A DNA stretch of 64,000 nucleotides from a virus (Duplodnaviria > Caudoviricetes): positions 32,001 through 96,000 of IMG/VR virus record IMGVR_UViG_3300033075_000428. The stretch is one strand, 5' to 3'. Positions 10,500 through 61,733 of this stretch are shown in pieces. The notes below the pieces were generated by a model. It ran no database searches and was not told where the DNA came from. It was given only the letters and a program-made list of their open reading frames with translations. How positions within the stretch are numbered: position 1 is the first letter of the stretch; each line of letters begins with the position of its first letter. Made by a program: the position numbers and the translations under genes.

Positions 10500-10613
10500 G
10501 TCGATTCTACTTCTTCGTGCTTCCTAGGATTCTACCTAGCTGTTGCTGAATCCACACCACACTCAGAAGTGTGGCAGTGGCAAGGTATGCTCCAAAGAGG
10601 AAGTCAAGAAATG

Positions 10614-26445: not shown

Positions 26446-26455
26446 GGTGAGTTCC

Positions 26456-26905
26456 TTACAGCTTTGCCGTTGACGTTGGTTCTGTGTAGGTGAAGTTCTT
26501 GATTGCGTGTCCGTTCCAGCTTCTAATGGAATGGACTAATGAACTGTTGAGTTCATGGTCAATAGCAAGGTTCATGAGCTTTGAACGAAGCATCTTGACT
26601 GAACGAGACTCATCATGAATCTGTTGAAGACTCTGCAAGTACTCAGCCATCTCACCCTTGCTCATCCACTTTGGTAATGGTGACGAAGGCATGTCCAGAA
26701 GCTCCTTGATGCTATGGCCTTCCATGTCATTTGAGTAGTTCTTTTCAGTGATAAGGATGCCAATGGCACACTGATGTGTAACATACCCGTCACGAGAGAA
26801 AATCTTGTACCGAGGTCCGCTGTTCACTGCATTGCGCACCTTTGACTGTACACCTTGCTCCGCAAAGTGAGTGCAAACTCGGTTGAACACTTCCTGCTTC
26901 GTCAT
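26456..26905 (-). CDS. conserved phage protein, tandem paralogue 4 of 4 (most divergent)
   Basis: Start moved to MTKQEVF (ATGA overlap); CAIGILI and LQxIHD retained. Confidence 0.75.
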   Translation of the reverse strand: MTKQEVFNRVCTHFAEQGVQSKVRNAVNSGPRYKIFSRDGYVTHQCAIGILITEKNYSNDMEGHSIKELLDMPSSPLPKWMSKGEMAEYLQSLQQIHDESRSVKMLRSKLMNLAIDHELNSSLVHSIRSWNGHAIKNFTYTEPTSTAKL

Positions 26906-28335: not shown

Positions 28336-28862
28336 AGTGACTTGTTTCGTATGTTCTTATTGAAGTGTTTCAGGCACGCGTCCTTACACTCAGTGATTGA
28401 ACCAAGCACGAGAATTTGTGATCTTTCATGTGCGTCACTGTCATCGATGAATCGTGCTCGGTACATTGGCAGAGTCACATCAATGAGCTCAATCACATAT
28501 TCCAAGTCAACTGTTATCACAGCGCGATAAACAACTACTGCTGTAACTGTCTTCCAAACAATGTCACGTGCTGGTTCAGACAATGGATTCTCTTTGGTTT
28601 GTGGTTTCCTAACAACAACGATTGACCAACTAGGTCTCAGTGTAGAAGACTTCGCGACGAAAGATTCGTACTGAACTACATTCTTCGAAAGATGTTTACA
28701 GGTAAACACTCTGCTATCGTGGGTGGTTTGTAGGTAGGAGAACAAGCCCACTTCATCATGGTCTTCTGGAATCGTGACACGTACTGGCCTTCCGTTAGCA
28801 ATACTGTCTTGAACAGCATTATTAACTTTGTCAAGAGTATTCTGAGCTATCTTAGTTACCAT
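28332..28862 (-). CDS. hypothetical protein
   Basis: Packed ORF. Confidence 0.6.
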   Translation of the reverse strand: MVTKIAQNTLDKVNNAVQDSIANGRPVRVTIPEDHDEVGLFSYLQTTHDSRVFTCKHLSKNVVQYESFVAKSSTLRPSWSIVVVRKPQTKENPLSEPARDIVWKTVTAVVVYRAVITVDLEYVIELIDVTLPMYRARFIDDSDAHERSQILVLGSITECKDACLKHFNKNIRNKSL

Positions 28863-29185
28863 TTGATTTTCTCCAATGCGGCGTTGACAACACGCGTGTT
28901 GAAGCGTTCTTGTCTTGTTGTTTCCCAGTCAGACTGCATGACGTCTTTAGCTACCAGTAGTGCTCTGGCCATCAAGATGTGAGCACCATCTTCATAGTTG
29001 TGCTCAAACGTGAATTTGTGTTCACTGTTAAATCTGTGTTCACCATTACACAATGTAAGGGTCAACTCATAGACAAAGTCACCAACGTTAGTGGTGCTCT
29101 TGCCCCTGTTCACAATCTTGAACTTGTAAATCGTGTCTCGGTTAACCTTGACGTCAAACGTTAGCATGCTTCTTTCTTGTGTCAA
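28856..29185 (-). CDS. hypothetical protein
   Basis: Packed ORF. Confidence 0.55.
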   Translation of the reverse strand: MTQERSMLTFDVKVNRDTIYKFKIVNRGKSTTNVGDFVYELTLTLCNGEHRFNSEHKFTFEHNYEDGAHILMARALLVAKDVMQSDWETTRQERFNTRVVNAALEKIKW

Positions 29186-29247
29186 ATTAGTTGACAGCTA
29201 AGTGCGCGGGTTGGCACCCTTGGAAGAACGAGCAACCAAGCGAATAC

Positions 29248-29282
29248 AAAAATCCCCACAGTGCGTTACCAAAGTGGGGATT
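29248..29282 (-). terminator. intrinsic terminator closing the Y RNA cassette
   Basis: AATCCCCAC...GTGGGGATT followed by TTT; a second hairpin GTAGTGATG/CATCACTAC lies at 29294-29319. Confidence 0.7.
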
Positions 29283-29341
29283 GCTGGCTTACAGTAGTGA
29301 TGTCTATACCCATCACTACCACCAGTGAGGCAAAATACAAG

Positions 29342-29468
29342 TTCTAACAGGAACAGTCGCTAACGGAAATTAAGTGCTCTACCAACTGAGCTACAAGCAA
29401 TTGCTCGCTTGACAGGACTTGAACCTGCGACAAAAGGAGAAGTATCCGTTGGCTACACCATGTTAGAA
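29342..29468 (-). ncRNA. yrlA: YrlA-like Y RNA with permuted tRNA-like domain
   Basis: Terminal stem TTCTAACA/TGTTAGAA; TGGTGTAG, GATACTTC and CTGTTCC motifs; T arm GCAGG-TTCAAGT-CCTGT, closed acceptor CAAGCGA-GCAA-TTGCTTG, D arm GCTC-AGTTGGTA-GAGC. Confidence 0.85.
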
Positions 29469-29522
29469 TCGTTGTGTTTTCAAACGTACTGAAATCAGTA
29501 CAACAGACACTCAATAAATAAC

Positions 29523-29663
29523 CCTGTAGGAACAGGCGTTGACGGGCTTTTGTGACCACTTGTTTTGCCAGTTAAACTACAAGATTATAGAAATCTTGGA
29601 AGGATTTGAACCTTCAATCAGCGGTTTTTTGTTACGAAGTAACCGTTAACTACACCATACAGG
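29523..29663 (-). ncRNA. yrlA: YrlA-like Y RNA with permuted tRNA-like domain
   Basis: Terminal stem CCTGTA/TACAGG; same three motifs; T arm GAAGG-TTCAAAT-CCTTC, closed acceptor CAAGATT-TCTAT-AATCTTG, D arm GTTT...AAAC. Confidence 0.85.
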
Positions 29664-29718
29664 TATCATTGAGTTTTCAAATGTACTGTTGACAGTACAA
29701 CAAGCAGTCAAAAATAAA

Positions 29719-29788
29719 ACCGACAGGAACAGGCGTCTACGGGTTGTGGTTCATAACGTGAAGTAACCGTTGACTACACCATGTCAGT
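29719..29788 (-). ncRNA. short Y RNA (putative Ro-binding stem only)
   Basis: GACA-TGGTGTAG-TCAACGG-TTACTTC...CCGTAGA-CGC-CTGTTCC-TGTC; no tRNA module. Confidence 0.75.
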
Positions 29789-32705: not shown

Positions 32706-32743
32706 AAACAAAATAGCCCATCATACACTACAATGATGGGCTA
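32706..32743 (-). terminator. intrinsic terminator ending the head-protein block
   Basis: TAGCCCATCAT...ATGATGGGCTA followed by TTTTGTTT. Confidence 0.8.
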
Positions 32744-32775
32744 CTGGCGTGAAACGAGAGGAGGCGATTGACTAA

Positions 32776-33177
32776 TCAGGTGTGAAGCAACGGATTGATG
32801 ATCTCACTTGGTGTATTGGTTGAACTGATGAGAGCATGGTATTGCTTTATGCGATTCTCATTGTAAAAGCTAGAGATGTTCTTCTGAATTGCTTTCAGCG
32901 CATCGTGATCAGCTTGAACCTTTGACGCCGACATTCTGCGCAAGTATTTGCCATCAACGTAGATGCGTACGTCGTAGTCGAGACCACGACCAAACTCTGA
33001 AGTCTTTTCCATACTCAATACAAGTGTTGTAGTCCACTTGATTAACTTCTTGTAAAGGGAAGCTGGTATCTCTTTCGTCTTCAAGTACTCTTCATAGTCT
33101 GGGAGCTTCAGTTTGAGCACTGAAATTGGTGGACTCCCAGCTACTGAGACTCTGAACTCAATTGGTTTGGTAGACAC
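32776..33177 (-). CDS. hypothetical protein
   Basis: Packed ORF. Confidence 0.65.
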   Translation of the reverse strand: MSTKPIEFRVSVAGSPPISVLKLKLPDYEEYLKTKEIPASLYKKLIKWTTTLVLSMEKTSEFGRGLDYDVRIYVDGKYLRRMSASKVQADHDALKAIQKNISSFYNENRIKQYHALISSTNTPSEIINPLLHT

Positions 33178-33495
33178 TTAGTCTCCTCTTTCCACAAATG
33201 AGTCTTCAATCAGTTTGAGAAGTTCAGTGTAGGCACTGATTTTCTGCTTAACTTCTTTTTGTGCCTTTTGGAGACGTTCAGTATATTCGTCTACCCATTC
33301 TTCAGTAACGTCTTGTTTCAATAGGCGTTCAAAGCCCATTGGCACAATCATTGGTAGTGAACTCACTCCACTACTGTTAAGCTTATTAACTATCTCTCGA
33401 ACAGCAGCCTTCAACATCTTGGCATTTTCGCTCTCTTCACCAACGTGGTCTGTGGACTCACGTATTGACCTGACGATGTTCAGTTCATTTTGCAT
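33178..33495 (-). CDS. putative internal head protein, leader class A
   Basis: MQNELNIVRSIRES. Confidence 0.65.
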   Translation of the reverse strand: MQNELNIVRSIRESTDHVGEESENAKMLKAAVREIVNKLNSSGVSSLPMIVPMGFERLLKQDVTEEWVDEYTERLQKAQKEVKQKISAYTELLKLIEDSFVERGD

Positions 33496-33510
33496 TGTTT
33501 GTTCAATCTG

Positions 33511-34005
33511 TTAGTACAAGTTATCTTTTGCCAATTCAGGATTAGCAATCACTTTCGTTATCTGCTTCTTGATTGCTGGTAGTTGTCTTTTCATCTCATC
33601 CAAAATGATGTCACGCAATGTATCTTTCAACTTATTGATGAAGTCATCAATGACTGAAAGAGAATCTAGTGTTGAACGACCGAGTGCTCTCAGTGCTTGC
33701 TCAGCAATGTAGTAGATTGAATCATCTACATAGCTAGCTAGTATCCGTTGATACTCGTTACTATTAGCCCTTGAAAAATCTTTTGCGGTGAATAGCTTGT
33801 TGAACTGCTCTAAGAATGCCCCTGTTTCAACTGGGTCTCCAAGTTCATTAGCAGTGTCAATCAAATTGCCAATTACTACGGGCTCAACAATTGGAGTATT
33901 CTTCTTGTTGATGCGAGTGAATTCCTTGACAAACCTTGATGTTAATGACCCGTCTGCCAAAGAAGACTCTCTGATAGCCTTGAGGATGTTCAGTTCATTT
34001 TGCAT
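33511..34005 (-). CDS. putative internal head protein, leader class A
   Basis: Start moved to MQNELNILKAIRES; the first 21 nt are identical to the 33495 gene. Confidence 0.65.
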   Translation of the reverse strand: MQNELNILKAIRESSLADGSLTSRFVKEFTRINKKNTPIVEPVVIGNLIDTANELGDPVETGAFLEQFNKLFTAKDFSRANSNEYQRILASYVDDSIYYIAEQALRALGRSTLDSLSVIDDFINKLKDTLRDIILDEMKRQLPAIKKQITKVIANPELAKDNLY

Positions 34006-34062
34006 TCTTCTATGCTTTCGAGATTTGTTTCCAAATTTAATTTCTTGGCTTACCATAGTTCA

Positions 34063-34527
34063 TTACTCAGCAAAGTTATCAATGTACTCAAGAGAACCCT
34101 TGAGTGCCTTGATGAAAATGCGTCTCACCTTGTTTACCCCGTCTTCATCACCTTGCTCTGGTTTGTATTTGACCAAACCACCAGCAACCATTGTGAACGC
34201 TGTACAGTAGTAGTTGTTGACAGCTTCAGTTGCCCATTGAAATGCTTCCGACTGGACGCTTGACTTAAAACTGTCATCACTGCATTTCAAGATGAAGTCC
34301 TTGAGTTGCTGTTTCCTGTACTCAAAGACTCTTGACATGTCTCCGTTCATCCCCGAAGTGTCCTGAGTCAAGTACATGTCGATGTTACTAAGCTTGACAT
34401 TCTGATTGATGTCGTAGTCAGCAGTCTTCAGTAACATCTCTTGGTCTCTGGGGTCTAATTGTGTGAAAACGAGTCTCTTACCCAGAGACTCGTTTATCCC
34501 ACGAATGATGTTTAGTTCAGAGTCCAT
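34063..34527 (-). CDS. putative internal head protein, leader class A
   Basis: MDSELNIIRGINES. Confidence 0.65.
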   Translation of the reverse strand: MDSELNIIRGINESLGKRLVFTQLDPRDQEMLLKTADYDINQNVKLSNIDMYLTQDTSGMNGDMSRVFEYRKQQLKDFILKCSDDSFKSSVQSEAFQWATEAVNNYYCTAFTMVAGGLVKYKPEQGDEDGVNKVRRIFIKALKGSLEYIDNFAE

Positions 34528-35021
34528 TAGTACTTGATCTGATACTTCCCAGCCAAGACCTTAGGAATTTCACGTTCAAACATTGGAAGTTGTTTTTCAA
34601 GTTCATCAAGGAACAATGATACCATTGCAGGATACAGATTTAAATCCCGTTCAGGTACACCGAAACCAGTCTCCTCACAAGTATATTCTACCCAATCAAA
34701 AATGATATTTTGGCATGCAGAATGCTTGCCGTAAATACTCATTATTGGGCTCGAGATATATGTTTTCAATTCTTTCATCAATCGCTCTACCGTGACTGAC
34801 TCCTCACCTTCTTCTATCGCTATTTCCTCTGCAAGATTGGTGATGATATCATCTGGAATGAGTACTAAATCTCTCTTAAGACGTTGCAGTCTTTCCTGTT
34901 CCGCTGGAGTCAGTTTGAGATTTTGAATTCTGCTTGAAAGTACTGACTCTTGAATAAGAGTCTTGACCACAGTGTCAACGGACATTGTGGACTCAACAAG
35001 ACTTTTGGTATCTTTCTTCAT
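34527..35021 (-). CDS. putative internal head protein, leader class B
   Basis: Start moved to MKKDTKSLVESTMSVDTVVKTLIQES. Confidence 0.6.
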   Translation of the reverse strand: MKKDTKSLVESTMSVDTVVKTLIQESVLSSRIQNLKLTPAEQERLQRLKRDLVLIPDDIITNLAEEIAIEEGEESVTVERLMKELKTYISSPIMSIYGKHSACQNIIFDWVEYTCEETGFGVPERDLNLYPAMVSLFLDELEKQLPMFEREIPKVLAGKYQIKY

Positions 35022-35133
35022 TCCGATTATCCTTATAAAGTGAGAGTTGACTAGTCTATGTCCTAATTTGATTAGGGCATCAAGTACTGTTAACGAATAC
35101 AATAATTCGCAGTACCTAGTTTTGAGAGACAGC

Positions 35134-35649
35134 TTAGTTTACACGAAGCAATGAGTCTGCCTTGCGAAGCAGAGAGTCGACCAATGGGTCTGATTCCATG
35201 TCAGCTGTCTTGAGAACCATACGAGCCTTAGTGACAGCAACGATGAACATTGAGTAGTACGACATTTCAATCATTGGGTCAGACTCCATCATCTCCCAAG
35301 CCTGCAAGATGTTGTACAGTGCTTGTACACCCTTGGTCTTGGAACGAAACAAGTTCGTATAGTCATCTTCTAGTTCAGGACACAAGCGGTTCAATACACT
35401 CAGGCTCATCTCTTGAACCTTCATGCCACGAATCTTCTTGCGTACGTATGTCTGCAGTGTAGTGTTCTCCGCAGCATGCGTTACTAACAGGTACACAACA
35501 GTTCTCAGTTGAGCCGCTGTCTTGATTCCTGTTGGGAATGGCATGTTGGAAGTGCCCTGCATGGACTTAATCTGCTTCAACACATCGGTCATCACTGTTG
35601 TCTTGAACAGCGGTGCAGAGATGATTCTCTTGTCGACTTCAAAGTTCAT
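35134..35649 (-). CDS. hypothetical protein
   Basis: 171-aa ORF with no leader motif. Confidence 0.65.
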   Translation of the reverse strand: MNFEVDKRIISAPLFKTTVMTDVLKQIKSMQGTSNMPFPTGIKTAAQLRTVVYLLVTHAAENTTLQTYVRKKIRGMKVQEMSLSVLNRLCPELEDDYTNLFRSKTKGVQALYNILQAWEMMESDPMIEMSYYSMFIVAVTKARMVLKTADMESDPLVDSLLRKADSLLRVN

Positions 35650-35672
35650 TGTCTCGTCCTGTATTGGGTTTC

Positions 35673-36071
35673 TTAGTATATTGGTTCGATTTCAACTGAA
35701 AGCTTTCGTGTCTTCAAGACTGAATTCAGTTCTTGGTATGAATCATAAAACCGCTGAATGTTGTTAGCAATCTTACCGATTCTCCTTGTGACTTCCTTGT
35801 CAAGCTTCAACTCAAGCTCTTTCACATTCTTTACACCCTTCACCATGCCCTCTTCAAAGAACTTTCGGAGAGCATCAGCGTCCTTAGTATAACCAAGGTC
35901 TTCGATGCAAGAGCAGAATTCTTCCATGTCAAAGTTGCGAGCAAACTTCTCAACCCATTCATCAACCCGAGGAAACTCACCACCAGTGGTGTCGATTGTC
36001 TCCTGAATCTTCTTAGGAGCAGATTTCGATTCTTGCTCTCGCATTGCTTGTAGGATGGATAGTTCCGACAT
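35673..36071 (-). CDS. putative internal head protein, leader class A
   Basis: MSELSILQAMREQES. Confidence 0.65.
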   Translation of the reverse strand: MSELSILQAMREQESKSAPKKIQETIDTTGGEFPRVDEWVEKFARNFDMEEFCSCIEDLGYTKDADALRKFFEEGMVKGVKNVKELELKLDKEVTRRIGKIANNIQRFYDSYQELNSVLKTRKLSVEIEPIY

Positions 36072-36072
36072 G

Positions 36073-36579
36073 TTAAGCTCCAAACTCCGTTGTTATTTTA
36101 CCCGACTCTTTTGCGTAACGATTGACACAGTACTTCGCAATCACAAGTGCTATCTCTGAAGGCAAGCCAGCGAAGAACGTAGCATGCGCCACGCCTGGAA
36201 CAAACTCTTGAAATCTGTTGGTTCTGTCTAGGTCATGCGACAGTAACTTCTTGACTGGAGCAACTTGAATTCGTGGGTCTTGCTTCAAGTCAGATTGAAG
36301 TATGAAGTAGTAACGATGTCCACCGTCTCGCTTATTGGGGTCACCAGACGTAAGGGAAATCCAAGCTGTGTTCTCAGACTGAGTGTCAAACTCAAGCGCA
36401 ACACCTTGCAATCCAAAGTATTCTGCCTTCAATCCCATTTTCAAGAGCAAGTCATGTATAACACGAGCACTGCTCTTGAATGCCTTGTCTGTAGTGACTG
36501 CTTCTAGCAACGAGCTAACAAACTGCGTCTCAGTCAACGACTCATTCTCAACAAGGTTACGTACTGTTTCGTTACGCAT
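36073..36579 (-). CDS. putative internal head protein, leader class B
   Basis: MRNETVRNLVENESLTETQFVSSLLEA. Confidence 0.6.
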   Translation of the reverse strand: MRNETVRNLVENESLTETQFVSSLLEAVTTDKAFKSSARVIHDLLLKMGLKAEYFGLQGVALEFDTQSENTAWISLTSGDPNKRDGGHRYYFILQSDLKQDPRIQVAPVKKLLSHDLDRTNRFQEFVPGVAHATFFAGLPSEIALVIAKYCVNRYAKESGKITTEFGA

Positions 36580-37036
36580 GTTGAAGTGCTTCCATTTGTT
36601 CATCGTAAATCTTCTTCACAACAGCATACAAGCTATTGAGTTGTCCGTCTTTCACAGGGAACGTCTGGGTTGGGATTTGAATGTCCTTTACTGTTCCGTT
36701 AAGCTTCACTGTGAACTTGTCCATTGACATCTCACCAGTTTGGCCGTCTGCTATGAACTTCATTGTTATTGTGGCTACAGCACCCGATGGTGTATCGATG
36801 TCCACCAGAATGCTAGAGTGGTAGTCAACAACGTCACCATCATCTATGTTACGGTGAATCAACACAGCAGAGACCTTGTAGTCGTTTTGAATCTTGACAC
36901 GAAGCATGTCAATGATGTCTTGAAACAACTCAGCCTCGTCTGCTGTTAGCTCAGCTTCCCCAAGGAACTGCTTTGTGATGGTCTCTATTGAGAGACCAGT
37001 TTCGAGGAGAGTTCTGATTTGGTTGTTTACTGACAT
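36572..37036 (-). CDS. putative internal head protein, leader class B
   Basis: MSVNNQIRTLLETGLSIETITKQFLGEA. Confidence 0.6.
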   Translation of the reverse strand: MSVNNQIRTLLETGLSIETITKQFLGEAELTADEAELFQDIIDMLRVKIQNDYKVSAVLIHRNIDDGDVVDYHSSILVDIDTPSGAVATITMKFIADGQTGEMSMDKFTVKLNGTVKDIQIPTQTFPVKDGQLNSLYAVVKKIYDEQMEALQHA

Positions 37037-37070
37037 AGTCTTGAGTCAATCCGTTGAGTGATTATTGGTT

Positions 37071-37700
37071 TCAGTCGACTTGAATGTAACCAAACCGAGT
37101 ATTCAAGAGCAAGGTTACATCATAGTTTGGTGAGTTTGCCCAGATGGTGTTGCCTTGTTGCTTGAACCCAAGATGGTCTAGGACACCAGTCCAAGTTTTA
37201 TAGTCAGCGTCTGATACGTCGAGCTTGTTACCTTGGAGCAAAGTTACTTCATGTTCAGTAGCAAGCAAGAAGTCTTGAATGAACTTGTTAGCATCACCTG
37301 GAGTTTGCTCAGTCTCAGAGAGTTCATCGGTTGATTCTTTGAATGCTGTCTTCTCAAACTTCTGAAGAAGTTTTATCGCATCGTTAGCAGACTCACCGAG
37401 TTGTACCATTCCCTTTAGATAGGAGTATGCTACACTGAAGGTATTAGGTTGTATAAACCCAGAGCAGATTTGGGAGAGTACCCTACCCAATTCATAGAAA
37501 TCGTGGTAGTTTTGGGATTCATACGAATCCATCGCGAGGAAAAACGTCCGTAAATTCGTCTGAAGCTCCTTTAGTTTTTCACTATCGATTTCTTCTGATA
37601 ACTCTGGTTTCTGATTAGACTCTTTCAATCTACTGTTCTTTGACAATAGCTCTTCATCTTGAAGTCTACGCATCTCAGCTAGGATTGCTCTCTCGGACAT
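37071..37700 (-). CDS. putative internal head protein, leader class A
   Basis: MSERAILAEMRR...LKES; partly paralogous to 37727-38158 (VxLGExAN). Confidence 0.65.
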   Translation of the reverse strand: MSERAILAEMRRLQDEELLSKNSRLKESNQKPELSEEIDSEKLKELQTNLRTFFLAMDSYESQNYHDFYELGRVLSQICSGFIQPNTFSVAYSYLKGMVQLGESANDAIKLLQKFEKTAFKESTDELSETEQTPGDANKFIQDFLLATEHEVTLLQGNKLDVSDADYKTWTGVLDHLGFKQQGNTIWANSPNYDVTLLLNTRFGYIQVD

Positions 37701-37726
37701 GGTGTATTTCCTTGGGTTAGATTACT

Positions 37727-38158
37727 TTAGTCGCAGTCTTCATCAATACCCGAGCCAGCAAAGAGGTTGTCTTCGTTCAAATCATCTTCGTCAGAGTTAC
37801 TCGACTCAGCGAAAGTGTCTGGCAACTGCTCAGTTGCAGTGAGCACTTTATTAGCTTCCTCTCCAAGCTCAACAAGTGACTCTAGTAACTCAGTCAACTG
37901 GTCTTTCGATTCTTGTGTATAAGCACGTTTGGTAACGTCTGAGTAGACCAATGCGAGATACTCTTGAAGGTTCTCAAATAGATGAGGCTCCCTACCGATT
38001 GCTACGGTGAGCTTCTGTGAAGCAGTCTTAAACCACTCAATAGCATGCTTATCAGCATCGCTCTCTGTGATTTGAATTGACTCTTTCAGCGAGTTAGTCT
38101 TCTGAGCTTCTTCAGCTTCGTTGCGACGCATTGCTGCAAGGATTGCTAGTTCTGACAT
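37727..38158 (-). CDS. putative internal head protein, leader class A
   Basis: MSELAILAAMRR...LKES..ITES. Confidence 0.65.
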   Translation of the reverse strand: MSELAILAAMRRNEAEEAQKTNSLKESIQITESDADKHAIEWFKTASQKLTVAIGREPHLFENLQEYLALVYSDVTKRAYTQESKDQLTELLESLVELGEEANKVLTATEQLPDTFAESSNSDEDDLNEDNLFAGSGIDEDCD

Positions 38159-38175
38159 GTTGTTTCTCTTGTTAG

Positions 38176-38523
38176 TTATTCGTCGTAAAATCCAACTGCA
38201 TTTCTGAGCTCTTTAACGAATGGTGAAGTCTTCTTTAAGAACTCTTTTAGACGCTCTAATGCAGTTAGAACCGCAATACCGTCTTTACGGTCAACCAGAT
38301 TTGGATCATCTATATCGTCATCAATTAGCTTTGTAAGTGAGTCAGAAAGCTTGGTCAACATGTCCTGTGGCATCTTTTCTCTCAGCTGAGCTCCTAAATG
38401 GAGAAGCTTATCCTTTCGATTCGCCCCGACAAGCATTGCTGTTCGACCGTTATAGTCAATCTCATTGAGGTTATTCTCATCCAACTCTAACGAAACCGTG
38501 GTATTTCCTGCAGTGATTGGCAT
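38176..38523 (-). CDS. hypothetical protein (possible head protein)
   Basis: AAGGAG RBS; LDE/LNE motifs near the N-terminus. Confidence 0.6.
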   Translation of the reverse strand: MPITAGNTTVSLELDENNLNEIDYNGRTAMLVGANRKDKLLHLGAQLREKMPQDMLTKLSDSLTKLIDDDIDDPNLVDRKDGIAVLTALERLKEFLKKTSPFVKELRNAVGFYDE

Positions 38524-38538
38524 TTACTTCTCCTTGGG

Positions 38539-39453
38539 TTAATGTGCGTCAGCAGTTTCTGCTTCAGCTGCATCGTGGTCAGCCTTCTTGTAATGGTGCC
38601 AAATCACTTCAACTGCCCACCAACCAGCACTCAGTGCTGTGGTGATGAGCGTGATGGCTCCACCGAACAAGACGAACTCAACGATACCAATTGCGATACA
38701 CACGGAGTTAATCACAACCTTGTGCTTCTCGTACCAGTCAACCATTCCCTTTAGCTTCGGATTGCTCTGAACTGTCTTGAGCTTCGAAATCAATCCAGCC
38801 AAGAATGGAATAGAAGGTGCAATCTTTAGTACCATTTCAAGGATGTCAACAGCAAAGTGCGTCCAGTGAATGGCACCCAACACAGCACCAATTGCTCCAC
38901 CTTCTTCAAGTGTGATTGGGAACTCAACTGGTTCATTGGTTTCATTGATTCGCTCTTGCTCGTCAACAACCCAAGAACGGTAGTCTTCCAAGAAGGAAGT
39001 GCGCTCGTCAGCTGTTACACGAATTGAGCGTTCCAACATGACGTCGGAGAGAATATGTCGTACTGGTTCGTGTGCCTCGAGCACCTTCTTCTCGCTCATG
39101 ATGGTCATGGCGGATTCAATCAGCCCATCTGCGTCTGACTTCGTTGCTCCCCACTTGAACCCAGGAACGAACTTCTGAGTGAGGTGTTTTTCCAATGGGG
39201 CGAAGACTTTGTCCTTGACCCAGTCAGCAATCTTGTCGACCTTGTCGGAAATGAAGGACTTGACCTTATCACCGATGTCTTTTACTTTGGCTAATCCCTT
39301 TTGAACAAGGTCTTTCAAACCTTCGTCAACAGCAGTTTCGTGTGTTTCATTCACACGTGCATTTGCGATTTTCAGTGCTTGTCTCACAACTGCTGCTTCG
39401 TTGAGCGTATTGTCGCGAAGCAACTCGTGAATTGTAGCAGTGTCTAGAGTCAT
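38539..39453 (-). CDS. putative head-packaged protein with C-terminal hydrophobic helices, leader class B
   Basis: IHELLRDNTLNEAAVV; many (I/L/V)xE sites; hydrophobic C-terminal third. Confidence 0.6.
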   Translation of the reverse strand: MTLDTATIHELLRDNTLNEAAVVRQALKIANARVNETHETAVDEGLKDLVQKGLAKVKDIGDKVKSFISDKVDKIADWVKDKVFAPLEKHLTQKFVPGFKWGATKSDADGLIESAMTIMSEKKVLEAHEPVRHILSDVMLERSIRVTADERTSFLEDYRSWVVDEQERINETNEPVEFPITLEEGGAIGAVLGAIHWTHFAVDILEMVLKIAPSIPFLAGLISKLKTVQSNPKLKGMVDWYEKHKVVINSVCIAIGIVEFVLFGGAITLITTALSAGWWAVEVIWHHYKKADHDAAEAETADAH

Positions 39454-39536
39454 GGCAGCTTGGGTATAATATGGAAATTGCTTACAGCCTTACTGGTATT
39501 AAGACTGTAAGCAATAGAGCTTTGACGTGTTGTTGG

Positions 39537-40133
39537 TTACAGTACTCCACTAGCAAACATGGCAACTGACCAACGGTCTTCAAGGTTAGTCGTTGGGTAG
39601 TCTGCTTGGAATTGATCACACTGTTGTCGTGTGAGCTCGAACTTACCTTCTGTGCGATTGACCAAACCAACAATCTCAATGAACTCCTCAAGTGACATAT
39701 TCCCCTTCTTGGTTGTAACTGTACCCAAGTGTTCACATGTGAACAGTAGGTCAGCACCTTCGTTGTTGGTAACGTCGAAGACCTGAATCATTCCCAAGAT
39801 TGGGTGTCCTGTTTGAATGAAGGGACATTGGAAGTCTATCGACCAGCAAACTTCAGGTGCTTCAGGAAACAGGGAGATGGTTGGAGCGATGGTGGTGCAA
39901 CCAACAGTTTCCAATGCTCTACCAACTTGTACTAGCTTGTACGTCTCAATTGCATTGATGTCTTCTTGAGACAAGCTGATGCTGAACTTCCGTGCTGGCT
40001 TGTAAAACTCTTGAGTGTCTGCTGGCTTCTGAGTGAAGTCAAAAGACTTGGTGCTATACGTTTCACTCGTAAGCATCTCAACTATCTGATTGGCAGAAGC
40101 GTTGGACACTAGGTATTGGTGGATGTTGTTCAT
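39537..40133 (-). CDS. putative internal head protein, leader class B
   Basis: MNNIHQYLVSNASANQIVEMLTSE. Confidence 0.6.
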   Translation of the reverse strand: MNNIHQYLVSNASANQIVEMLTSETYSTKSFDFTQKPADTQEFYKPARKFSISLSQEDINAIETYKLVQVGRALETVGCTTIAPTISLFPEAPEVCWSIDFQCPFIQTGHPILGMIQVFDVTNNEGADLLFTCEHLGTVTTKKGNMSLEEFIEIVGLVNRTEGKFELTRQQCDQFQADYPTTNLEDRWSVAMFASGVL

Positions 40134-40165
40134 TGTTGTTCTGAAAACTTATCTGCCATGTGTAG

Positions 40166-40204
40166 AAAAAGTAACGAAGCCGTTTCACTTGCTGAGACGG
40201 CTTC
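40166..40204 (-). terminator. putative intrinsic terminator
   Basis: GAAGCCGTCTCA-GCAAG-TGAAACGGCTTC then GTTACTTTTT. Confidence 0.6.
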
Positions 40205-40211
40205 AGCTTTA

Positions 40212-40646
40212 TTACAGCAACTTCTCTACGATGCTCTGCTCAGTCAGTGCTTCTGACTTAATCATGCTGTGGATGTCAGACGCTGACTCTTTGTAGAGAC
40301 TACCAAGTTTATGTCTTACTCTGCTCGCAATGTCAGATGGGTCACCAGCTGGATTGCGATTGATGTAGGTAAGAACTTCAAAGTACATATCATGAGTGTC
40401 GAATTCACCAGTACTGATCAGCTTCTTCAATTTTGCTGTGAATCGAGTCACTGCTTCTTCAGCAACTTCCTCTTCGTCATGCTCGTTACCAGTTCTGACC
40501 TTCTTTGGGGCAGTGCTGTCAAGAACTTCTTCCCACTCATATGGGTCTTCATCCCCAAGACGAGATTTGGGTAGTGACTTCAGCTCATGACGAATCGTGT
40601 CATGCTCATCAGCGTAGCGATATTCGCCTTCTTGAATGCTAGACAT
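40212..40646 (-). CDS. acidic putative head protein with class B motif at the C-terminus
   Basis: Ends IHSMIKSEALTEQSIVEKLL. Confidence 0.6.
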   Translation of the reverse strand: MSSIQEGEYRYADEHDTIRHELKSLPKSRLGDEDPYEWEEVLDSTAPKKVRTGNEHDEEEVAEEAVTRFTAKLKKLISTGEFDTHDMYFEVLTYINRNPAGDPSDIASRVRHKLGSLYKESASDIHSMIKSEALTEQSIVEKLL

Positions 40647-40855
40647 GTTGAAGTTTCTCCGATTGATTCTTGGCTTGTTGTCTCATTCTTGTTAACTCAC
40701 GAAGCACACCAACCTTAGTCAACTCTGTGTACTCATTGGTGACGGCTTGACCAGAAGCTATTGCTGAGGATACTCTGATACTCTCTTGTTCAGAGAGTGG
40801 TTTGGATTCAGTGTTGATTGGGTGGTTCATTTGCAGTAAGCTAGGTGCAATGTTA

Positions 40856-41857
40856 TCACCAGCGTTCAAGACTCTCGATATCAGAATACTCTTTCTTAAG
40901 CTCAGAAAGAAATTTAGACATCGTGAACTCTTTTGTAGAATCAATGTAAAGAGTGCCTGGTTCATCGTCCTCATTGCTGAAAACGTTTTTCTTCCCGTTG
41001 TCGTCTGTTCCTGTTATCTTAGTCACAACTTCAACGCTCGACTCATCACCTACCGCAAAGTAGAAACTGAGTTTGATACTATTAGCTTTCCCTGTAGTAG
41101 CATTTGGAGAATCCATTACTACGACTAATGCAGGTGATAGTGCGCCAGCAGAGCGTGCTTTCTTGACAGAAGTCACAGTGAACTCATTCCCCTTGATACT
41201 TTTACAGAGTTGTGTGAACACATTTTTGAAGTCTGCTTCTGAATTCTCTAGCCAGAGTTTTTCGAATCCAACTGTGTCTTGAGGAGTAACTTTGGTCTTC
41301 ACTAGATACTTGCGGAGTTGCTTACCTTTGCTCTTTAGAGCAGATAAGAATGCTTGGTCTTTCTTTGCCAAACTGAAGAAGTATTCAAGGCTCTCAGGTG
41401 AGTTAGCGCGTTCTTCACTGAAGAACTTATAGACTTCTGGGTCTTTGAATTTTTTGAATTCAAGCCAAGTAGACGCTCCATCAAGACCGCTTTTTTCAAC
41501 ACGATTTTTATCTAAAATTCCAGGAAATGCGATTATCTGAACTATATAGATGGGATTTTTGGATCTTGAACTATAATATAGTTCGATTGTGGCATGGATT
41601 GATATTTTTACCAACTTACCAGTAGGTACAACGGGAGTTAAAAGGTATTGATTAGCACCATTGTAATCGGGAGTGTATTTTTCAATAGTAACACTCCCAG
41701 CGGGTAATACTGAGATTAATTCGTCTATTATCCAAGCATCGACATTTTCAGTTTTAGTAAGCTTAAACTCCTTATTGCGATACTCTTCAATCAGAATCTG
41801 CTCTATGATAGATTTCTCATCAAGAGATGAGTTGATAAGTTTGTGTATTGACTTCAT
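40856..41857 (-). CDS. putative internal head protein, leader class B
   Basis: MKSIHKLINSSLDEKSIIEQILIEE. Confidence 0.65.
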   Translation of the reverse strand: MKSIHKLINSSLDEKSIIEQILIEEYRNKEFKLTKTENVDAWIIDELISVLPAGSVTIEKYTPDYNGANQYLLTPVVPTGKLVKISIHATIELYYSSRSKNPIYIVQIIAFPGILDKNRVEKSGLDGASTWLEFKKFKDPEVYKFFSEERANSPESLEYFFSLAKKDQAFLSALKSKGKQLRKYLVKTKVTPQDTVGFEKLWLENSEADFKNVFTQLCKSIKGNEFTVTSVKKARSAGALSPALVVVMDSPNATTGKANSIKLSFYFAVGDESSVEVVTKITGTDDNGKKNVFSNEDDEPGTLYIDSTKEFTMSKFLSELKKEYSDIESLERW

Positions 41858-41882
41858 GGGAATTCTCCTGGTTACTGATTGT

Positions 41883-42722
41883 CTATATAACTGCTAGGAA
41901 TGATGCGTCTGGAACCACTGCGCTGGTTGAACCAGCGTCTTCAGCAATGTTAATGTAGTAGTATCCACTCTTCGCTTTCCCAGACTTCAAGAAGCGTAAG
42001 ATTGTACCATTGGCTCTTGCGTCGTCCATTGGGCTACTGAGTGTGTTCGACATCTGTCCAATGATTCTCACTTGGAATACAATAGGCTTGCAGTTGAACG
42101 GAACAATGCTATTGTCAGAATATGTAGCACGTTCGTCTCTGTCTGTTGGGTAGTAGTCTTCCTCTGGACAACGACAGTTGAATCCTGTCTGACGGTATCG
42201 AAGTCTCGGGTCGGTGTCAAAACTCTTCTGTCCTGCGAGTAGTGTCTTACCATACTCACGAGTGCCATCCCAAGAACCCTCTGCGGGAATACCAATTCGT
42301 GCTTCAAGTGCTTCAGTAGCTGCTTTGAATGTACCTACGTGGATTCCACGGGTACCCTTTAGGTTCTTGTCTGTGCTCCCGTGCCAGAAGATGGGTGCTG
42401 AGGACTCTAGTAGTTTCAAGCACACGTCATTGACTGACAACTCAGTAGACTCAATGAGCTCACGAACATGTTCACTGTGTTCAACATGCTCATGAGTCTT
42501 CTTTATCACATTACCAGACTTGAAGAGTTTGCTGGGGTCTTGACCAAGAGTGATGCTACCTTCTCGGAACTTGTCAAACCCATCCTTCTTCGCTACTTGT
42601 TTCACAGCTTTGACACGGGCTTGCCACTGTACTGAGGTTTCCTCTTCACGTTGTGACGCTAACAGTTCTTCCTGCCATTCTTCATTACCCTTACGAGTCC
42701 CCCACAAGACACCCTGTTTCAT
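41883..42722 (-). CDS. putative head-packaged ADP-ribosyltransferase-like protein
   Basis: Internal class B motif, then FWHGS...GIHVGT..AA...Y.N..ED.GS.S..V. Confidence 0.55.
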   Translation of the reverse strand: MKQGVLWGTRKGNEEWQEELLASQREEETSVQWQARVKAVKQVAKKDGFDKFREGSITLGQDPSKLFKSGNVIKKTHEHVEHSEHVRELIESTELSVNDVCLKLLESSAPIFWHGSTDKNLKGTRGIHVGTFKAATEALEARIGIPAEGSWDGTREYGKTLLAGQKSFDTDPRLRYRQTGFNCRCPEEDYYPTDRDERATYSDNSIVPFNCKPIVFQVRIIGQMSNTLSSPMDDARANGTILRFLKSGKAKSGYYYINIAEDAGSTSAVVPDASFLAVI

Positions 42723-42724
42723 GC

Positions 42725-43441
42725 TTAGTCCTTGAACGTAACATCAACAGGCAAATCAGTAAAAATCTCTTGGGCGAAATCAATGCAGTCTGAATACACT
42801 TCGCTACGCTGGTCGTCTGGCATTGAAAGGGCAGACGTCAGGTCTTCCAAGATTGCATTCGACAAGTCACGCATTTCTTCAAGAAGCGTGATGTCCTCTT
42901 CAAGCAGGGCATGTGTGTCGCGCTCTTGGACGTGAAGTTCGATGATGAAGTGCGTTAGGCCTGAGCTCACCGCTTTCATGAGCTCTAACACGTCTTCTCG
43001 GGTCACGAACGCTGTTGACTCGTTTGTTTCCGCTGGAGTGGAAAGAGTCTTCTGAAAATGCTTGGACTTCCCAGAACGCCAGAACTTCTTGAGTGCTCGC
43101 TTGTACTTTTCCTTGTAGCGAGTCCAACGACGCTTCGCAATTCTGCTGAGTGCTGAGTTTGGCCTACGGTGATTCTTATGACGCACAACGGAAGCTTCTT
43201 CCAATTCCTCAACGAGTGAGAGTACCAAGGCTGACTCTTCTTGAGTCAAAGATTCTTCAATCAGTGCAGAGTTTACACGTGACAGTACTTTCGGTAAGAA
43301 ATCTTCTTTGCACGAGGACTCTAGGACAACGAGTTTCTCATACAATGAGAGTGTTTCATCAAAGCTCAACGGCTCAATACCTTTGAACTTTGGAAGTGTC
43401 TTGACGAAAGAAAGTGTCTCAGTCAGTGACAGTTGTTGCAT
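42725..43441 (-). CDS. putative prohead core/scaffold-associated protein
   Basis: Immediately downstream of the portal; acidic LxE-rich flanks around an Arg/Lys-rich core. Confidence 0.45.
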   Translation of the reverse strand: MQQLSLTETLSFVKTLPKFKGIEPLSFDETLSLYEKLVVLESSCKEDFLPKVLSRVNSALIEESLTQEESALVLSLVEELEEASVVRHKNHRRPNSALSRIAKRRWTRYKEKYKRALKKFWRSGKSKHFQKTLSTPAETNESTAFVTREDVLELMKAVSSGLTHFIIELHVQERDTHALLEEDITLLEEMRDLSNAILEDLTSALSMPDDQRSEVYSDCIDFAQEIFTDLPVDVTFKD

Positions 43442-43450
43442 TTCGTTACC

Positions 43451-45241
43451 TTAGTTTCCTGAAGTGATTGGAGTTTGGTCTGCTTCGGGGTCTTCACGAA
43501 GTGTAATCAACTCTTCAAGAGTGAATTGACCTTCGGTCAGAATGTTCTTCTGTGTGAGTCTACGTTGAATGTCGTTGTTGAAGTTCTGCAATGAACCTTC
43601 ACCAAGACGGAACCTGAGCCTATCAATCTGACTCTTCAGCTCATTGTTCTCTGACAATACCTTGTCAACAGTGCGTTCAATTTCCAAGACGTTGAGTGGA
43701 TTGACTGGCTGATTGGAAGCGAACAATGAATCCACTGAACCTTCTTTTGCCTTCTCTCCGTCGCCTTCACCACCTTCGTCACCTGTCTCACCTTCTGCTG
43801 AGGCTTCGTCTTCCTTCTTAGGATACAACTCATCCAGCTGAAGATTTGGTAGACGCATGTACGTCTTGATGAGGTAGCGATACAGGTACTCTTTGTCCAC
43901 TGTCTCAACACCATCGGTAACAGCAGTAACTATTGACTGGCAAACAGCTACTACTGCACTCAATGCGTCTGCTCTGTCCAACTCACCGTTAGTTGAAACA
44001 GGGGTGAGGGACACCTTGAACTTCGAAGGGTCAACGTCGAGACCATGCAAATAGAGCTCAATCTGGCACATGATTGTTAGGCCAACAATCAAGTCCTTTT
44101 GAATGGAAGCTACCTTGCGTGCATACCGTGGGTCAAGTGCAATCAGTGAATTGTACGAGAGAGCACTGTCTCCGTCGAATGACAGATATTGCTTTGGAAT
44201 ACCCAATGTTCCAAAGCGTTGTGAATTCAAGAACTCGATGTCAACGATCGACGAAACGTCAACGTCTCCACCAAAGGTGCTGATTTCACTACGTCCCTTG
44301 TTCGACGAACCATACACTGGAATGATGATTTCGTCTGCATATGACATTGGGTTCCGTTCACTGGACAAATACTCTTGTGTGTAGTTCACACCAGACTGCT
44401 TCGTGAACAGCTTCTTGTAGTTCTTGATGATGTTCTTCTGCTCACGAGTGTCACTTCCTTGGCCAACATCCACATAGTGAACACGGTAGAAAATAGACTT
44501 CGCTAAACGTGCTAACACCAATGAGTCTTCAGCAAGTGAGATTTTCTTCTCAATTTGACGAGACTTGATGAATGCTGGAGAGCCATACTTTGGGTTGATG
44601 TCGATGTCATACTTCTGCCAGAAAGCGTCTGGCATTCTGTCTTCCACAATTGGGTAACGTACGCTTCGGAAGTGTACGTAGTCAAATGGCTTGAGGGAAA
44701 CGAATTCACGTCCAGTGGTCATGGAGTTGTGAGTGATTGGACTCACTTCCAAGAATCCAACCAGCTTCCCGTTCTTCTCCAGACGACACACTTGTTCTGG
44801 TCGAATGGAATCATTGACATGGGAGATGCCACTACCTGAAGTCACAATACGGGTGAACTTGTCACCATACTTAGCGAGTTCACGTGCCCAAGACCAGATA
44901 CTTTCTTCAAGTCCAAGACGGTCAATCATGTTGCGTAAGACACGCTCTTTCTTTGGGTCTTCCGACGTCACGCTAATGATTTGATTCGCCGTGATGTCCA
45001 TTTGCGTAGCGTCGTCAGCCAACATGTCCAATGCACGTGACATCATCGACTCGTCCATCAAGTCCATGTCTCGGTACACTTCACTTCGCTTGTAGGTAGT
45101 ACCAGTGAATTGATTGTAGAACTCAATCAACTGGGACTTGTTTACTTCTGGTGAGTAGACTTCTCCACCTGACACTGGCTTCCTTGGTGCAAGGTTACCA
45201 GTACCACCAAACAGAGACTTCAGACCATCGAACATTGCCAT
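43451..45241 (-). CDS. portal protein (T4 gp20-like)
   Basis: 596 aa; YRxM, ALDxxADD, EDSLVLARLAK...RVHYVDVG, DIEFL...LGIPK. Confidence 0.85.
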   Translation of the reverse strand: MAMFDGLKSLFGGTGNLAPRKPVSGGEVYSPEVNKSQLIEFYNQFTGTTYKRSEVYRDMDLMDESMMSRALDMLADDATQMDITANQIISVTSEDPKKERVLRNMIDRLGLEESIWSWARELAKYGDKFTRIVTSGSGISHVNDSIRPEQVCRLEKNGKLVGFLEVSPITHNSMTTGREFVSLKPFDYVHFRSVRYPIVEDRMPDAFWQKYDIDINPKYGSPAFIKSRQIEKKISLAEDSLVLARLAKSIFYRVHYVDVGQGSDTREQKNIIKNYKKLFTKQSGVNYTQEYLSSERNPMSYADEIIIPVYGSSNKGRSEISTFGGDVDVSSIVDIEFLNSQRFGTLGIPKQYLSFDGDSALSYNSLIALDPRYARKVASIQKDLIVGLTIMCQIELYLHGLDVDPSKFKVSLTPVSTNGELDRADALSAVVAVCQSIVTAVTDGVETVDKEYLYRYLIKTYMRLPNLQLDELYPKKEDEASAEGETGDEGGEGDGEKAKEGSVDSLFASNQPVNPLNVLEIERTVDKVLSENNELKSQIDRLRFRLGEGSLQNFNNDIQRRLTQKNILTEGQFTLEELITLREDPEADQTPITSGN

Positions 45242-45246
45242 AAGAG

Positions 45247-45753
45247 TTAGGCTTCCGTCAAGGTTACGTCTTCAATACACACACCAATAAGCGGTGCAAT
45301 GATTTCAGCTGGGATGTCTGCGTCGATGATTTTCGACTCAGGAATCATCTTGAACTCAATCTTGTGCTTCTCATTGTAAGCGGTATCACGGAAGAGATTG
45401 TAAGCATCAAGGTCTTCCTGTGCGCTGATGCGCATTACGATTTCCTTGTGCCACTTGGTCTCATCCTTGTACTCTTCAGTGATGTCTTCAGCAGAGTTGA
45501 CTTCAAAGTAGTTGTTTGGGTCATCCACGTTAGCTTCATACCCTACACGTCGCAAGTACTTTGCTGGTTCACCTGCTTCATTCTTATCGCACAAGCGCAT
45601 GAATTCTTGACGAATCGCTTCATGCTCCTCTTTGAGAATCTTCTCAATCAAGCGAAGGTTCACACTGATGTGATAGGCACATGGGAGTGATGTCTTCGAC
45701 ATTGCAAGAAGCAACTGTTGAGTTATTTCTAGTTCAGAAAGTGTTAGTTCCAT
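45247..45753 (-). CDS. hypothetical protein (possible tail-fibre-associated chaperone)
   Basis: Position next to fibre genes; LP..Y.I..NL..IE pattern. Confidence 0.5.
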   Translation of the reverse strand: MELTLSELEITQQLLLAMSKTSLPCAYHISVNLRLIEKILKEEHEAIRQEFMRLCDKNEAGEPAKYLRRVGYEANVDDPNNYFEVNSAEDITEEYKDETKWHKEIVMRISAQEDLDAYNLFRDTAYNEKHKIEFKMIPESKIIDADIPAEIIAPLIGVCIEDVTLTEA

Positions 45754-52273: not shown

Positions 52274-53380
52274 TTAACGATTGTTAAGCACCACATCGAT
52301 GATGTAGGGAATCATGTCCTTGACAGCTACTGACTTCTTGCGTAGTGTTCTCGTGAGGAGGGAAACGAGTTCTGTTCCAATTCCTGGGACTGAGGCTGTG
52401 CTGAGCTTCTCTTTCGTGAGTGGGTCAATCATATCACGAATATTGGACGTTGCTGTCTCTATGCCCTGTCTGTCAACTTCACCTGTGCGTGGGTCTTTCA
52501 GTGTTTTGAGCAATACTCTTTTGAAGTACTCAAGATCAGGATTGAATGTCTCTATGATGTTCTCTTCATAGTCTGAGATTGTATCTTTCTTGTAAACTCC
52601 AAAGTATCTACTCTTGTTCTCTTCTGAGTTCAAGAACACGTCTAGTATATCTTGTTTTGGTACACCAATCAATAGGAGAACAAGAATAGCCTTATCATAT
52701 GGGTATGAACCTGTGTGGACTGGGAATTGAACAGTTCTCTGTGGCTGAGGCAATTCAGAAGTTTGATCCTTGCTCAAGAAGTCTTCAAGAGTTTCCTCAG
52801 TGACTTGTGTTCCTTTGGTGCCTGACTTGAAATCATTGCGTGAAGCAAATGAGTATACTGGGATGTTATTGTCAAGACAAGTTTGAACTACATTCCTTAG
52901 CATATCATTATTCTCTAGTGAGCTTTTGCCACGAGACGAAAGGATGTCTAACCGAATGATGTACTTCAGTGCATTCTTGATGATTGGTTTCGAGGAGAAG
53001 AAGCGTTCTTCGGTTTCATCATATTTGTTTCTAAACCAAGAGCTAGAATCAACGTGATAATCGAACGGCTCTCTACGGACTTCTTGATTGAGCCTGTCTG
53101 CATCAAGAGTGAATACAACTGGGAAGTTCGTGCCGAAGCTTATCCCCCTCGTTCGTGCAGTCGACAAGTAGTAGTACTTGTTCTTTGGAATGTCCTTCCG
53201 AATCTCCGTGCCTGTCATCAACGCTAAGCGGAACTGATTCTTGGTGACAATCTGCTCAGCTACGTCAAGGTGTGTGAAGTGATAGACTGTTCCCAGATTA
53301 CTACCTTCAATCAGGTCAGTGACAATGAGTGACACATCATCCTGCTTCGTTAGTTTCTGATGAAGGTTCTCTGGGTTCAT
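52274..53380 (-). CDS. putative head-packaged ADP-ribosyltransferase-like protein, leader class B
   Basis: Start moved to MNPENLHQKL...LIEG; VYHFT, YLSTAR, VVFTLD, ETEER. Confidence 0.55.
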   Translation of the reverse strand: MNPENLHQKLTKQDDVSLIVTDLIEGSNLGTVYHFTHLDVAEQIVTKNQFRLALMTGTEIRKDIPKNKYYYLSTARTRGISFGTNFPVVFTLDADRLNQEVRREPFDYHVDSSSWFRNKYDETEERFFSSKPIIKNALKYIIRLDILSSRGKSSLENNDMLRNVVQTCLDNNIPVYSFASRNDFKSGTKGTQVTEETLEDFLSKDQTSELPQPQRTVQFPVHTGSYPYDKAILVLLLIGVPKQDILDVFLNSEENKSRYFGVYKKDTISDYEENIIETFNPDLEYFKRVLLKTLKDPRTGEVDRQGIETATSNIRDMIDPLTKEKLSTASVPGIGTELVSLLTRTLRKKSVAVKDMIPYIIDVVLNNR

Positions 53381-61517: not shown

Positions 61518-61733
61518 ATGCAATTGATTGACCCACAACCGATGGACACGTTACCTCAAACTGGTCGAGTATTCGTTACATTGCACCAGTATTCAGGTGG
61601 AACGAAACCTGCGCAGTTTACTGTTGAGAAAGACGTACGCTATATCCGCTCCGATATGGAACACTACGACGCAAACGATAAGTGGCGTACTGAATATATC
61701 TCATGGTCACAAGCGGGAAACCCAGGAGAATGA
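61518..61733 (+). CDS. hypothetical protein, 'PQPMxTLP' domain
   Basis: MQLIDPQPMDTLPQTGRVF...SWS. Confidence 0.7.
   Translation: MQLIDPQPMDTLPQTGRVFVTLHQYSGGTKPAQFTVEKDVRYIRSDMEHYDANDKWRTEYISWSQAGNPGE

Follow-up and report, generated by a model that had tools for sequence, protein, structure and literature searches.

The 64,000-nucleotide stretch analysed here (the window) corresponds to bases 32,001-96,000 of a complete viral record of 190,353 base pairs (bp) with direct terminal repeats (IMGVR_UViG_3300033075_000428). Next to the portal gene it carries an array of small genes, the products of which share one of two short peptides, termed class A and class B leaders, mostly at their N-termini. 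Genes are named by their start coordinate in the window (e.g. 42722), whereas coordinates with the prefix C1: refer to the whole-genome record; the predicted proteome comprised 284 proteins and 57,674 residues. At the head of the array lies a portal protein of the T4 gp20 family (596 amino acids (aa), 43451..45241, minus strand; PF07230, E 7.5e-27), about 30% identical to annotated Maribacter phage portals. From the portal to 32776, 18 closely packed minus-strand genes were counted, the array being placed directly downstream of the portal. Two further head genes were recognized outside the window, namely a gp23-type major capsid protein (PF07068, E 2.3e-51) and a prohead protease of the gp21 family (Peptidase S77; PF03420, E 5.7e-27, 91 bits for a cut-off of 27). 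The PF03420 domain occupies residues 23-170 of a 493-aa protein (C1:5423-6904, locus L009), of which the remaining ~320 residues diverge among three related phages, with a high content of Lys, Glu and Gln (alignment A7). Judging from its position, composition and density of cut sites, this tail probably represents a fused scaffold, and the same protease-scaffold fusion was found in the relatives L011 and G001. At the DNA level, no close match was found among 50,697 GenBank phages.

Class A corresponds to the pattern M-x-x-E-L-x-I-[LIV]-x-x-[IM]-[RN]-E. A previous examination of this DNA by a model given only the letters and open reading frames (hereafter the sequence-only reading) had assigned it to six genes, and six-frame translation of the 190,353-bp genome returned exactly six matches, at those very starts (33495, 34005, 34527, 36071, 37700 and 38158), with or without the initial Met in the pattern. 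All six are on the minus strand. Three leaders end in I-R-E|S or I-N-E|S, the bar marking the candidate cut: those of a 105-aa protein (33178..33495, I-R-E|S at residue 13), of a 164-aa protein (33511..34005, I-R-E|S, start 34005 taken from the leader alignment) and of a 154-aa protein (34063..34527, I-N-E|S at residue 13). A fourth protein, of 132 aa (35673..36071), ends its leader in M-R-E|Q. The last two, of 209 aa (37071..37700) and 143 aa (37727..38158), display the subtype M-S-E-L-A-I-L with a candidate L-K-E|S at residues 27 and 26, respectively. A seventh member was recovered by profile outside the window (C1:23265-23597), with I-S-E|S at residues 11-14.

Class B is a motif of about 25 residues with two predicted helices, present on nine named proteins and on four others outside the window. 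Its announced occurrence on nine genes was borne out: the literal pattern proposed by the sequence-only reading matched nothing genome-wide, but a profile seeded with the nine named segments confirmed the motif. This nine-segment profile added three unseeded N-termini outside the window (C1:13662-14360, 28746-29786 and 10217-10774, with E-values from 2e-5 to 2e-3), and a fourth, weaker addition was C1:8167-9243. Once extended to 13 members, the profile found those 13 places only in the six-frame genome; C1:153586-154053 (E 0.015) is a fourteenth candidate. In a leave-one-out analysis, the omitted member ranked 11-24 of the 284 proteins, and 53380 alone was not recovered; it was kept in the class on account of its paralogy to the member C1:28746-29786 (E 3e-8).

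The nine named class B genes are likewise all on the minus strand. Those with a motif identified by profile encode proteins of 164 aa (34527..35021, with L-V-E|S and I-Q-E|S), 168 aa (36073..36579, start 36579 taken from the leader alignment, the frame being open back to 36603), 154 aa (36572..37036, ending in L-G-E|A), 304 aa (38539..39453, with a hydrophobic C-terminal region at aa ~203-278 in hydropathy windows), 198 aa (39537..40133, the best score against the class B model), 144 aa (40212..40646), 333 aa (40856..41857) and 279 aa (41883..42722). The weakest leader belongs to the 368-aa protein retained through paralogy (52274..53380), the gene of which is separated from the array. The placement of the motif as a leader held for seven of the nine named copies, but not for 40646, where it forms the last 22 residues, nor for 42722, where it is internal (residues 84-108), between an 83-aa N-terminal part and a domain with a predicted ADP-ribosyltransferase-like fold (aa ~111-279). 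No in-frame start codon was found near this internal motif, and as the Val codons there are GTT, a hidden start can be discarded. The class is characterized by two candidate cut sites, L-[IV]-E|S around residue 10 and, around residue 25, L-x-E|small. The first, in the wider form L-[IVL]-E|[ST], was present in seven class B leaders, and 42722 has both (L-I-E|S and L-L-E|S). In the AlphaFold model of 42722, the class B segment was predicted as two short helices (residues 2-9 and 14-25 of the segment) with predicted local distance difference test (pLDDT) values of 69-84. Classes A and B are interleaved along the array.

The existence of both groups did not depend on the way they had been noticed. 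In an unbiased comparison of the 284 predicted proteins with one another over their first 45 residues, 35 pairs exceeded a threshold that 3 shuffled pairs reached, and the largest groups were class B and class A. Profiles and unbiased clustering across the full proteome both recovered the two classes, and the leader classes are a real feature of this genome, which has about 20 tagged genes (~7% of its predicted genes). Since codon choice and upstream DNA differ among members, with the exception of 21 bases that 33495 and 34005 have in common, the conservation lies at the level of the peptide and not of the DNA. A DNA-level cassette or regulatory element was considered and rejected, the upstream DNA not being shared. 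The T4 late promoter TATAAATA was absent from the window, and sigma-70-like promoters and terminators were not above chance in the array region.

The leaders are short predicted helices, and most of them end alike. In agreement with the earlier statement that most of them finish at (I/L)xE, 14 of the 20 ended in [LI]-x-E followed by S, A or G at the aligned position, the genome-wide rate of [LI]-x-E|[SAG] being 0.0026 per residue. The protein with the strongest enrichment in these sites in the whole genome was the protease-scaffold protein, with 13 sites versus 1.55 expected from its own composition (P ~1e-8). Of the five copies of the tetrapeptide I-[RN]-E-S in the proteome of 57,674 residues, two belong to the protease (Glu 13 and Glu 20) and the other three to class A leaders, each at Glu 13.

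Beyond the leaders, the cargo parts were mostly unrelated, as had been claimed: BLASTP after leader removal detected almost no similarity among them. The exceptions were the pair 53380/C1:28746 and a C-terminal motif of 23 residues found at the same position in 34005 (class A) and 35021 (class B), both of 164 aa (E 4e-5). This common motif suggests related cargo behind different leaders. Pfam and PHROGs searches of all array proteins gave nothing above threshold; 39453 had a weak, sub-threshold resemblance to the T4 scaffold family PF25623 (E 0.018). For 37700, the only match among 5.8 billion proteins was the protein itself, and the same was true of 41857 among 1.84 billion representatives. 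A protein atlas search gave no lead for 53380, and a suspected link of this protein to the C-terminal extension of P0026 was not supported.

The best documented cargo is that of 42722. Its residues ~111-279 have 296 homologues (50-68% identity), mostly 185-200 aa long and devoid of the N-terminal 110 residues, and the homology begins five residues past the L-L-E|S with which the class B motif closes. Where homologues had a short N-terminal extension, [LIF]-x-E was present in 100 of 104, versus 29% of control N-termini, and in 73 of these 100 the last such tripeptide stood 5-7 residues before the domain, the distance being 5 in this phage. The class B motif of 42722 takes the place of this short leader. 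The leaders of homologues fell into several unrelated types, and the one of P0023 was identical at 7 of 10 positions to the printed T4 capsid-targeting sequence (PMC8442874). A likeness between class A and one homologue leader type, first a visual impression, received no support from the profile. Neighbours sharing the leader of the cargo homologue were detected in L013, L014, L023 and L045 (one neighbour in the latter) and not in six other loci, a signal that is suggestive only. In L013/L014 and L023, from unrelated IMG/VR phages, the leader of the cargo recurred on neighbouring genes, as with M-K-L-[KR]-[DQE]-[IL]-[IL] on three to four genes. The cargo had no match among the 50,697 GenBank phages, and some IMG/VR copies of the domain lie inside proteins of 1,344 to 4,806 aa.

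Invariant residues of the family include a His-Gly pair where the domain begins, together with several Tyr, Glu and Asp. The AlphaFold model had a pLDDT of 92.6, and the 50 best chains of a wide fold search, at weak scores, comprised about 45 from the ADP-ribosyltransferase superfamily (RES, ParT, MbcT, diphtheria-type and PARP). The best Foldseek E-value was 0.14, and the protein atlas also pointed to an ADP-ribosyltransferase. The modelled structure therefore suggests an ADP-ribosyltransferase-like fold, the assignment as an enzyme being tentative. As T4 Alt is a head-packaged ADP-ribosyltransferase, such a domain would be a fitting cargo.

Relatives were sought through the portal, with an alignment of portals, as the scan of viral contigs with a single portal gave none, and their loci were read from IMG/VR and JGI only. 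Portal homologues were found at 80%, 74%, 51% and ~45% identity. In L011 (portal 48%, capsid protein 52% identical), the portal, a homologue of the 238-aa portal neighbour described below, the protease-scaffold and the capsid protein follow one another within ~6 kb. This locus contained five class B-like motifs, one of them C-terminal, on open reading frames unrelated to the cargo of the present phage; no class A leader was found in the 20 kb covered. The complete genome G001 (IMGVR_UViG_3300020577_007160, 179.5 kb, portal 45%) had no match to either profile. The same unbiased clustering nevertheless uncovered a single leader on 23 of its genes (loci L057-L066), approximately I-E-[QR]-R-I-x-R-L-E-x-K, most copies ending in [IV]-[KR]-E|S or similar and often in I-K-E|S; the genes lie for example at G001:C1:115588-127137 and are scattered over 27-154 kb. 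In L012 (portal 44%), two or three genes after the portal (L012:2748-6213) had a leader of this G001 type. The next-best match after the 23 genes was the N-terminus of the G001 protease itself (11.8 bits), followed by four paralogues with a similar leader (10.3-11.5) and then by the background at 6.3, cross-phage controls ranking 71 and 148. From these comparisons, the leader varies by lineage while the terminal cut motif persists, and in at least one lineage, G001, the protease apparently carries the same signal as the cargo.

These distributions bear on a simple explanation by descent, according to which the shared N-termini are remnants of tandem duplication, the cargo having diverged and the N-termini having been kept for a reason foreign to the capsid, such as translation start or stability. 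The genes do lie in tandem, 33495 and 34005 are identical over their first 21 nucleotides, 37700 and 38158 are similar across ~27 residues, 34005 and 35021 combine equal length with a common C-terminal motif, and the cargo consists mostly of small acidic proteins that have no relatives. However, codons and upstream DNA differ between members, the leaders end in a motif enriched in the scaffold, 34005 and 35021 combine the same cargo motif with different leader classes, and in L011 class B has been retained on unrelated proteins. Besides, the 296 homologues of the 42722 cargo lack a class B leader, which indicates that the leader was joined to this domain independently. Duplication explains some pairs but neither the 42722 fusion, nor the class swap between 34005 and 35021, nor L011, and we regard it as an unlikely origin for the leaders as a whole.

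Conserved leaders on dissimilar proteins could also be expected if they were recognized by a modifying enzyme, as in ribosomally made modified peptides, or by another sorting machine (secretion, tail assembly). The idea of a tag for a radical-SAM enzyme was rejected, as the genome has none: no radical-SAM domain was detected in it by a search that was positive in 14 of 14 control genomes. The leaders are not hydrophobic signal peptides, and the link goes to the protease through the common cut motif, the enrichment in the scaffold and the protease N-terminus of G001. An enzyme or sorting machine of this kind seems highly improbable.

The interpretation favoured here, to which we attach a probability of about 65%, is that both classes are prohead-core targeting propeptides removed by the gp21-type protease. 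By analogy with the T4 capsid-targeting sequence, the leader helix would bind to the scaffold or core, and cleavage after Glu would free the cargo. Class A might take the path used by the N-terminal propeptide of the protease itself, while class B would be a longer signal with two helices and two sites that can double as a cleavable joint. A varied set of free proteins in the capsid would then leave with the DNA and be ejected into the host. Several observations weigh against this interpretation. The phage is uncultured and known from its sequence alone. Six of the 20 leaders lack [LI]-x-E at the aligned end, and [LI]-x-E is a short motif. The class A profile ranked the N-terminus of the phage's own protease as its top non-member, but only at rank 8 with 3.8 bits, barely above ranks 9 and 10; because this match has no margin, the link between protease and class A rests on the tetrapeptide count and on G001. 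No canonical cut site adjoins the C-terminal class B copy of 40646, 53380 sits among tail-fibre-like and not head genes, and no head protein resembling class B was found. As for the 42722 cargo, class A and B models had no significant match among the leaders of its homologues, its fold scores did not exceed Z 5.1, and neither PF18760 (ART-PolyVal) nor any other Pfam family matched it at E up to 0.05.

The most serious rival concerns class B, which could be a cleavable joint or a small folded module, for instance an oligomerization hairpin, so that class A alone, if either, would target and a single code would exist. The motif is internal in 42722 and C-terminal in 40646, with another C-terminal copy in L011; it contains two candidate cut sites, its model is a two-helix hairpin, and SPN3US provides a precedent for long propeptides with multiple internal cut sites (PMC5694885). 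On the other hand, 11 of the 13 copies stand at the very N-terminus, the copy in 42722 occupies the spot of a T4-like leader in the homologues, and the tagged proteins of L011, where no class A was found in the 20 kb covered, would be left with no address. Class B as a mere joint or module is accordingly judged rather unlikely.

Core targeting by both classes, the favoured interpretation, does not imply two independent signals. The sequence-only reading had proposed two parallel targeting codes. Comparison with the protease, the cut motif, the leaders of homologues and the relatives supports targeting, but two separate codes are not established; class B may be a double class A-type signal or a cleavable joint, as it also occurs at internal and C-terminal positions. 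A more elaborate possibility, which we consider doubtful at present, is that the two classes are separate addresses for different prohead partners (the protease-propeptide route for class A, another partner for class B), setting copy number, position or order of exit. The leaders would in that case co-evolve with the core and give mutually exclusive natural packaging tags across the clade.

The closest known system is that of T4, in which a 10-residue sequence, cut at residues 8-10, directs internal proteins as well as foreign fusions to the core. The T-even internal proteins form a diverse group with only this capsid-targeting sequence in common, Alt is cleaved at both termini, and a cut motif is also present close to the N-terminus of gp21 itself (PMC9026906, PMC3012670). 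The present phage resembles the setting of IPI, IPII, IPIII and Alt by its T4-type portal, capsid protein and S77 protease, by short N-terminal leaders ending in [LI]-x-E on otherwise unrelated proteins, and by a scaffold crowded with the same sites, which fits the degradation of the T4 scaffold by gp21. One cargo with a tentative ADP-ribosyltransferase-like fold recalls Alt, as does one C-terminal copy of the motif, Alt being cleaved at both ends, and a cut motif lies near the N-terminus of the protease, as in gp21. Differences are also apparent. About 20 genes are tagged here versus a handful in T4, two unrelated leader families coexist in one phage, and class B has ~25 residues, two predicted helices and two candidate sites instead of 10 residues. 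On visual comparison with the T4 capsid-targeting sequence (PMC8442874), the terminal hydrophobic-x-Glu was all that either class had in common with it. Protease and scaffold-like region are moreover united in one protein, and the system is known here from genes alone.

In giant phages such as SPN3US and phiKZ (inner-body proteins in the latter), many head proteins likewise bear propeptides that a T4-related protease cuts after Glu, but the cut motif is A/S/G-x-E and not [LI]-x-E, and the propeptides mostly exceed 100 residues and are common to paralogues rather than to unrelated proteins. The SPN3US proteins gp53 and gp54 have an identical 15-residue N-terminus with two candidate sites, and the ejection protein gp47 has a predicted transmembrane helix (PMC5694885). 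Polyvalent proteins of phages and conjugative elements (ART-PolyVal PF18760, MuF) offer another comparison, as the 42722 domain is found inside 1,344-4,806-aa proteins of other viral contigs and, in homologue P0098, a 42722-type domain stands beside ART-PolyVal, PF18760 being apparently a separate N-terminal part in the alignment. In this phage, by contrast, the domain is a small separate product behind a class B motif, and PF18760 does not match it. The comparisons suggest that the array is most likely a larger, two-tag version of the known T4-type system, differing from it in scale, in its two non-T4-like families, in the longer two-site class B and in the combination of leaders and cargo across lineages. 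A full-text literature search found no paper combining the capsid-targeting sequence with metagenomic surveys.

If the favoured interpretation is true, leader-based capsid loading is no T4 curiosity but a major mode of genome organization in an uncultured clade of large phages, with at least 20 tagged genes per phage, the leader being interchangeable from one lineage to another, with a constant cut motif at a constant distance from the cargo. Many proteins without relatives would then be flagged as likely virion-delivered and early-acting, and thus as candidates for anti-defence or host take-over. The apparent match between cargo leader and protease N-terminus in G001 would bear on the way the protease reaches the core, which is listed as an open question for T4 in a review (PMC9026906). 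Use of the leaders as protein-packaging tags, also put forward by the sequence-only reading, is not a new idea, since foreign proteins have already been loaded into T4 heads by means of the T4 capsid-targeting sequence (PMC9026906, PMC3012670); what the clade would provide is natural sets of different tags, each with a matching protease-scaffold partner.

Some genes of the region carry neither leader. Between the portal and 42722 lies a minus-strand gene for a 238-aa protein with a very basic central stretch (42725..43441) and no Pfam or PHROG match, homologues of which directly follow the portal in L006, L011 and L012 (27-31% identity, alignment A6). This portal neighbour was kept in all four relatives, with an invariant very basic stretch. 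Within the array, and also on the minus strand, the genes without either leader encode proteins of 115 aa (38176..38523), 171 aa (basic, 35134..35649) and, at its end, 133 aa (basic, 32776..33177). Directly after the array, a terminator-like hairpin (32712..32745, minus strand) was recognized by consensus match only, such sites being not above chance in this region. An inverted repeat with a 12-bp stem (40176-40204) occupies the 78-base gap between the 40646 gene, with its C-terminal class B motif, and the class B gene that follows, and might be a remnant of recombination or a site of transcript processing.

N-terminal resemblances were also observed elsewhere in the window. The N-terminus M-K-L-V-N-P-Q-P-M-x-T-L-P is common to four genes (2167-2703, 6134-6559 and 6563-6757 on the minus strand, 61518-61733 on the plus strand), which may be full-length paralogues or bear a third common tag, and four tandem genes at 25251-26905, probably a family of paralogues, have near-alike N-termini (T-x-Q-E-I-F-D-T-V-A-x-H-L-L-T-Q-N-E). 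The interval between portal and protease amounts to ~68 kb in this phage (window 1-43441 plus C1:6904-32000) versus ~2.7 kb in L011; with the array and many unrelated genes inside it, this interval has the appearance of the clade's variable region. Finally, a clear Shine-Dalgarno sequence is missing from most array genes (gene starts at window 33000-45300), which, together with the portal matches to phages of Flavobacteriia (Maribacter, Flavobacterium), gives a hint of a Bacteroidota host.

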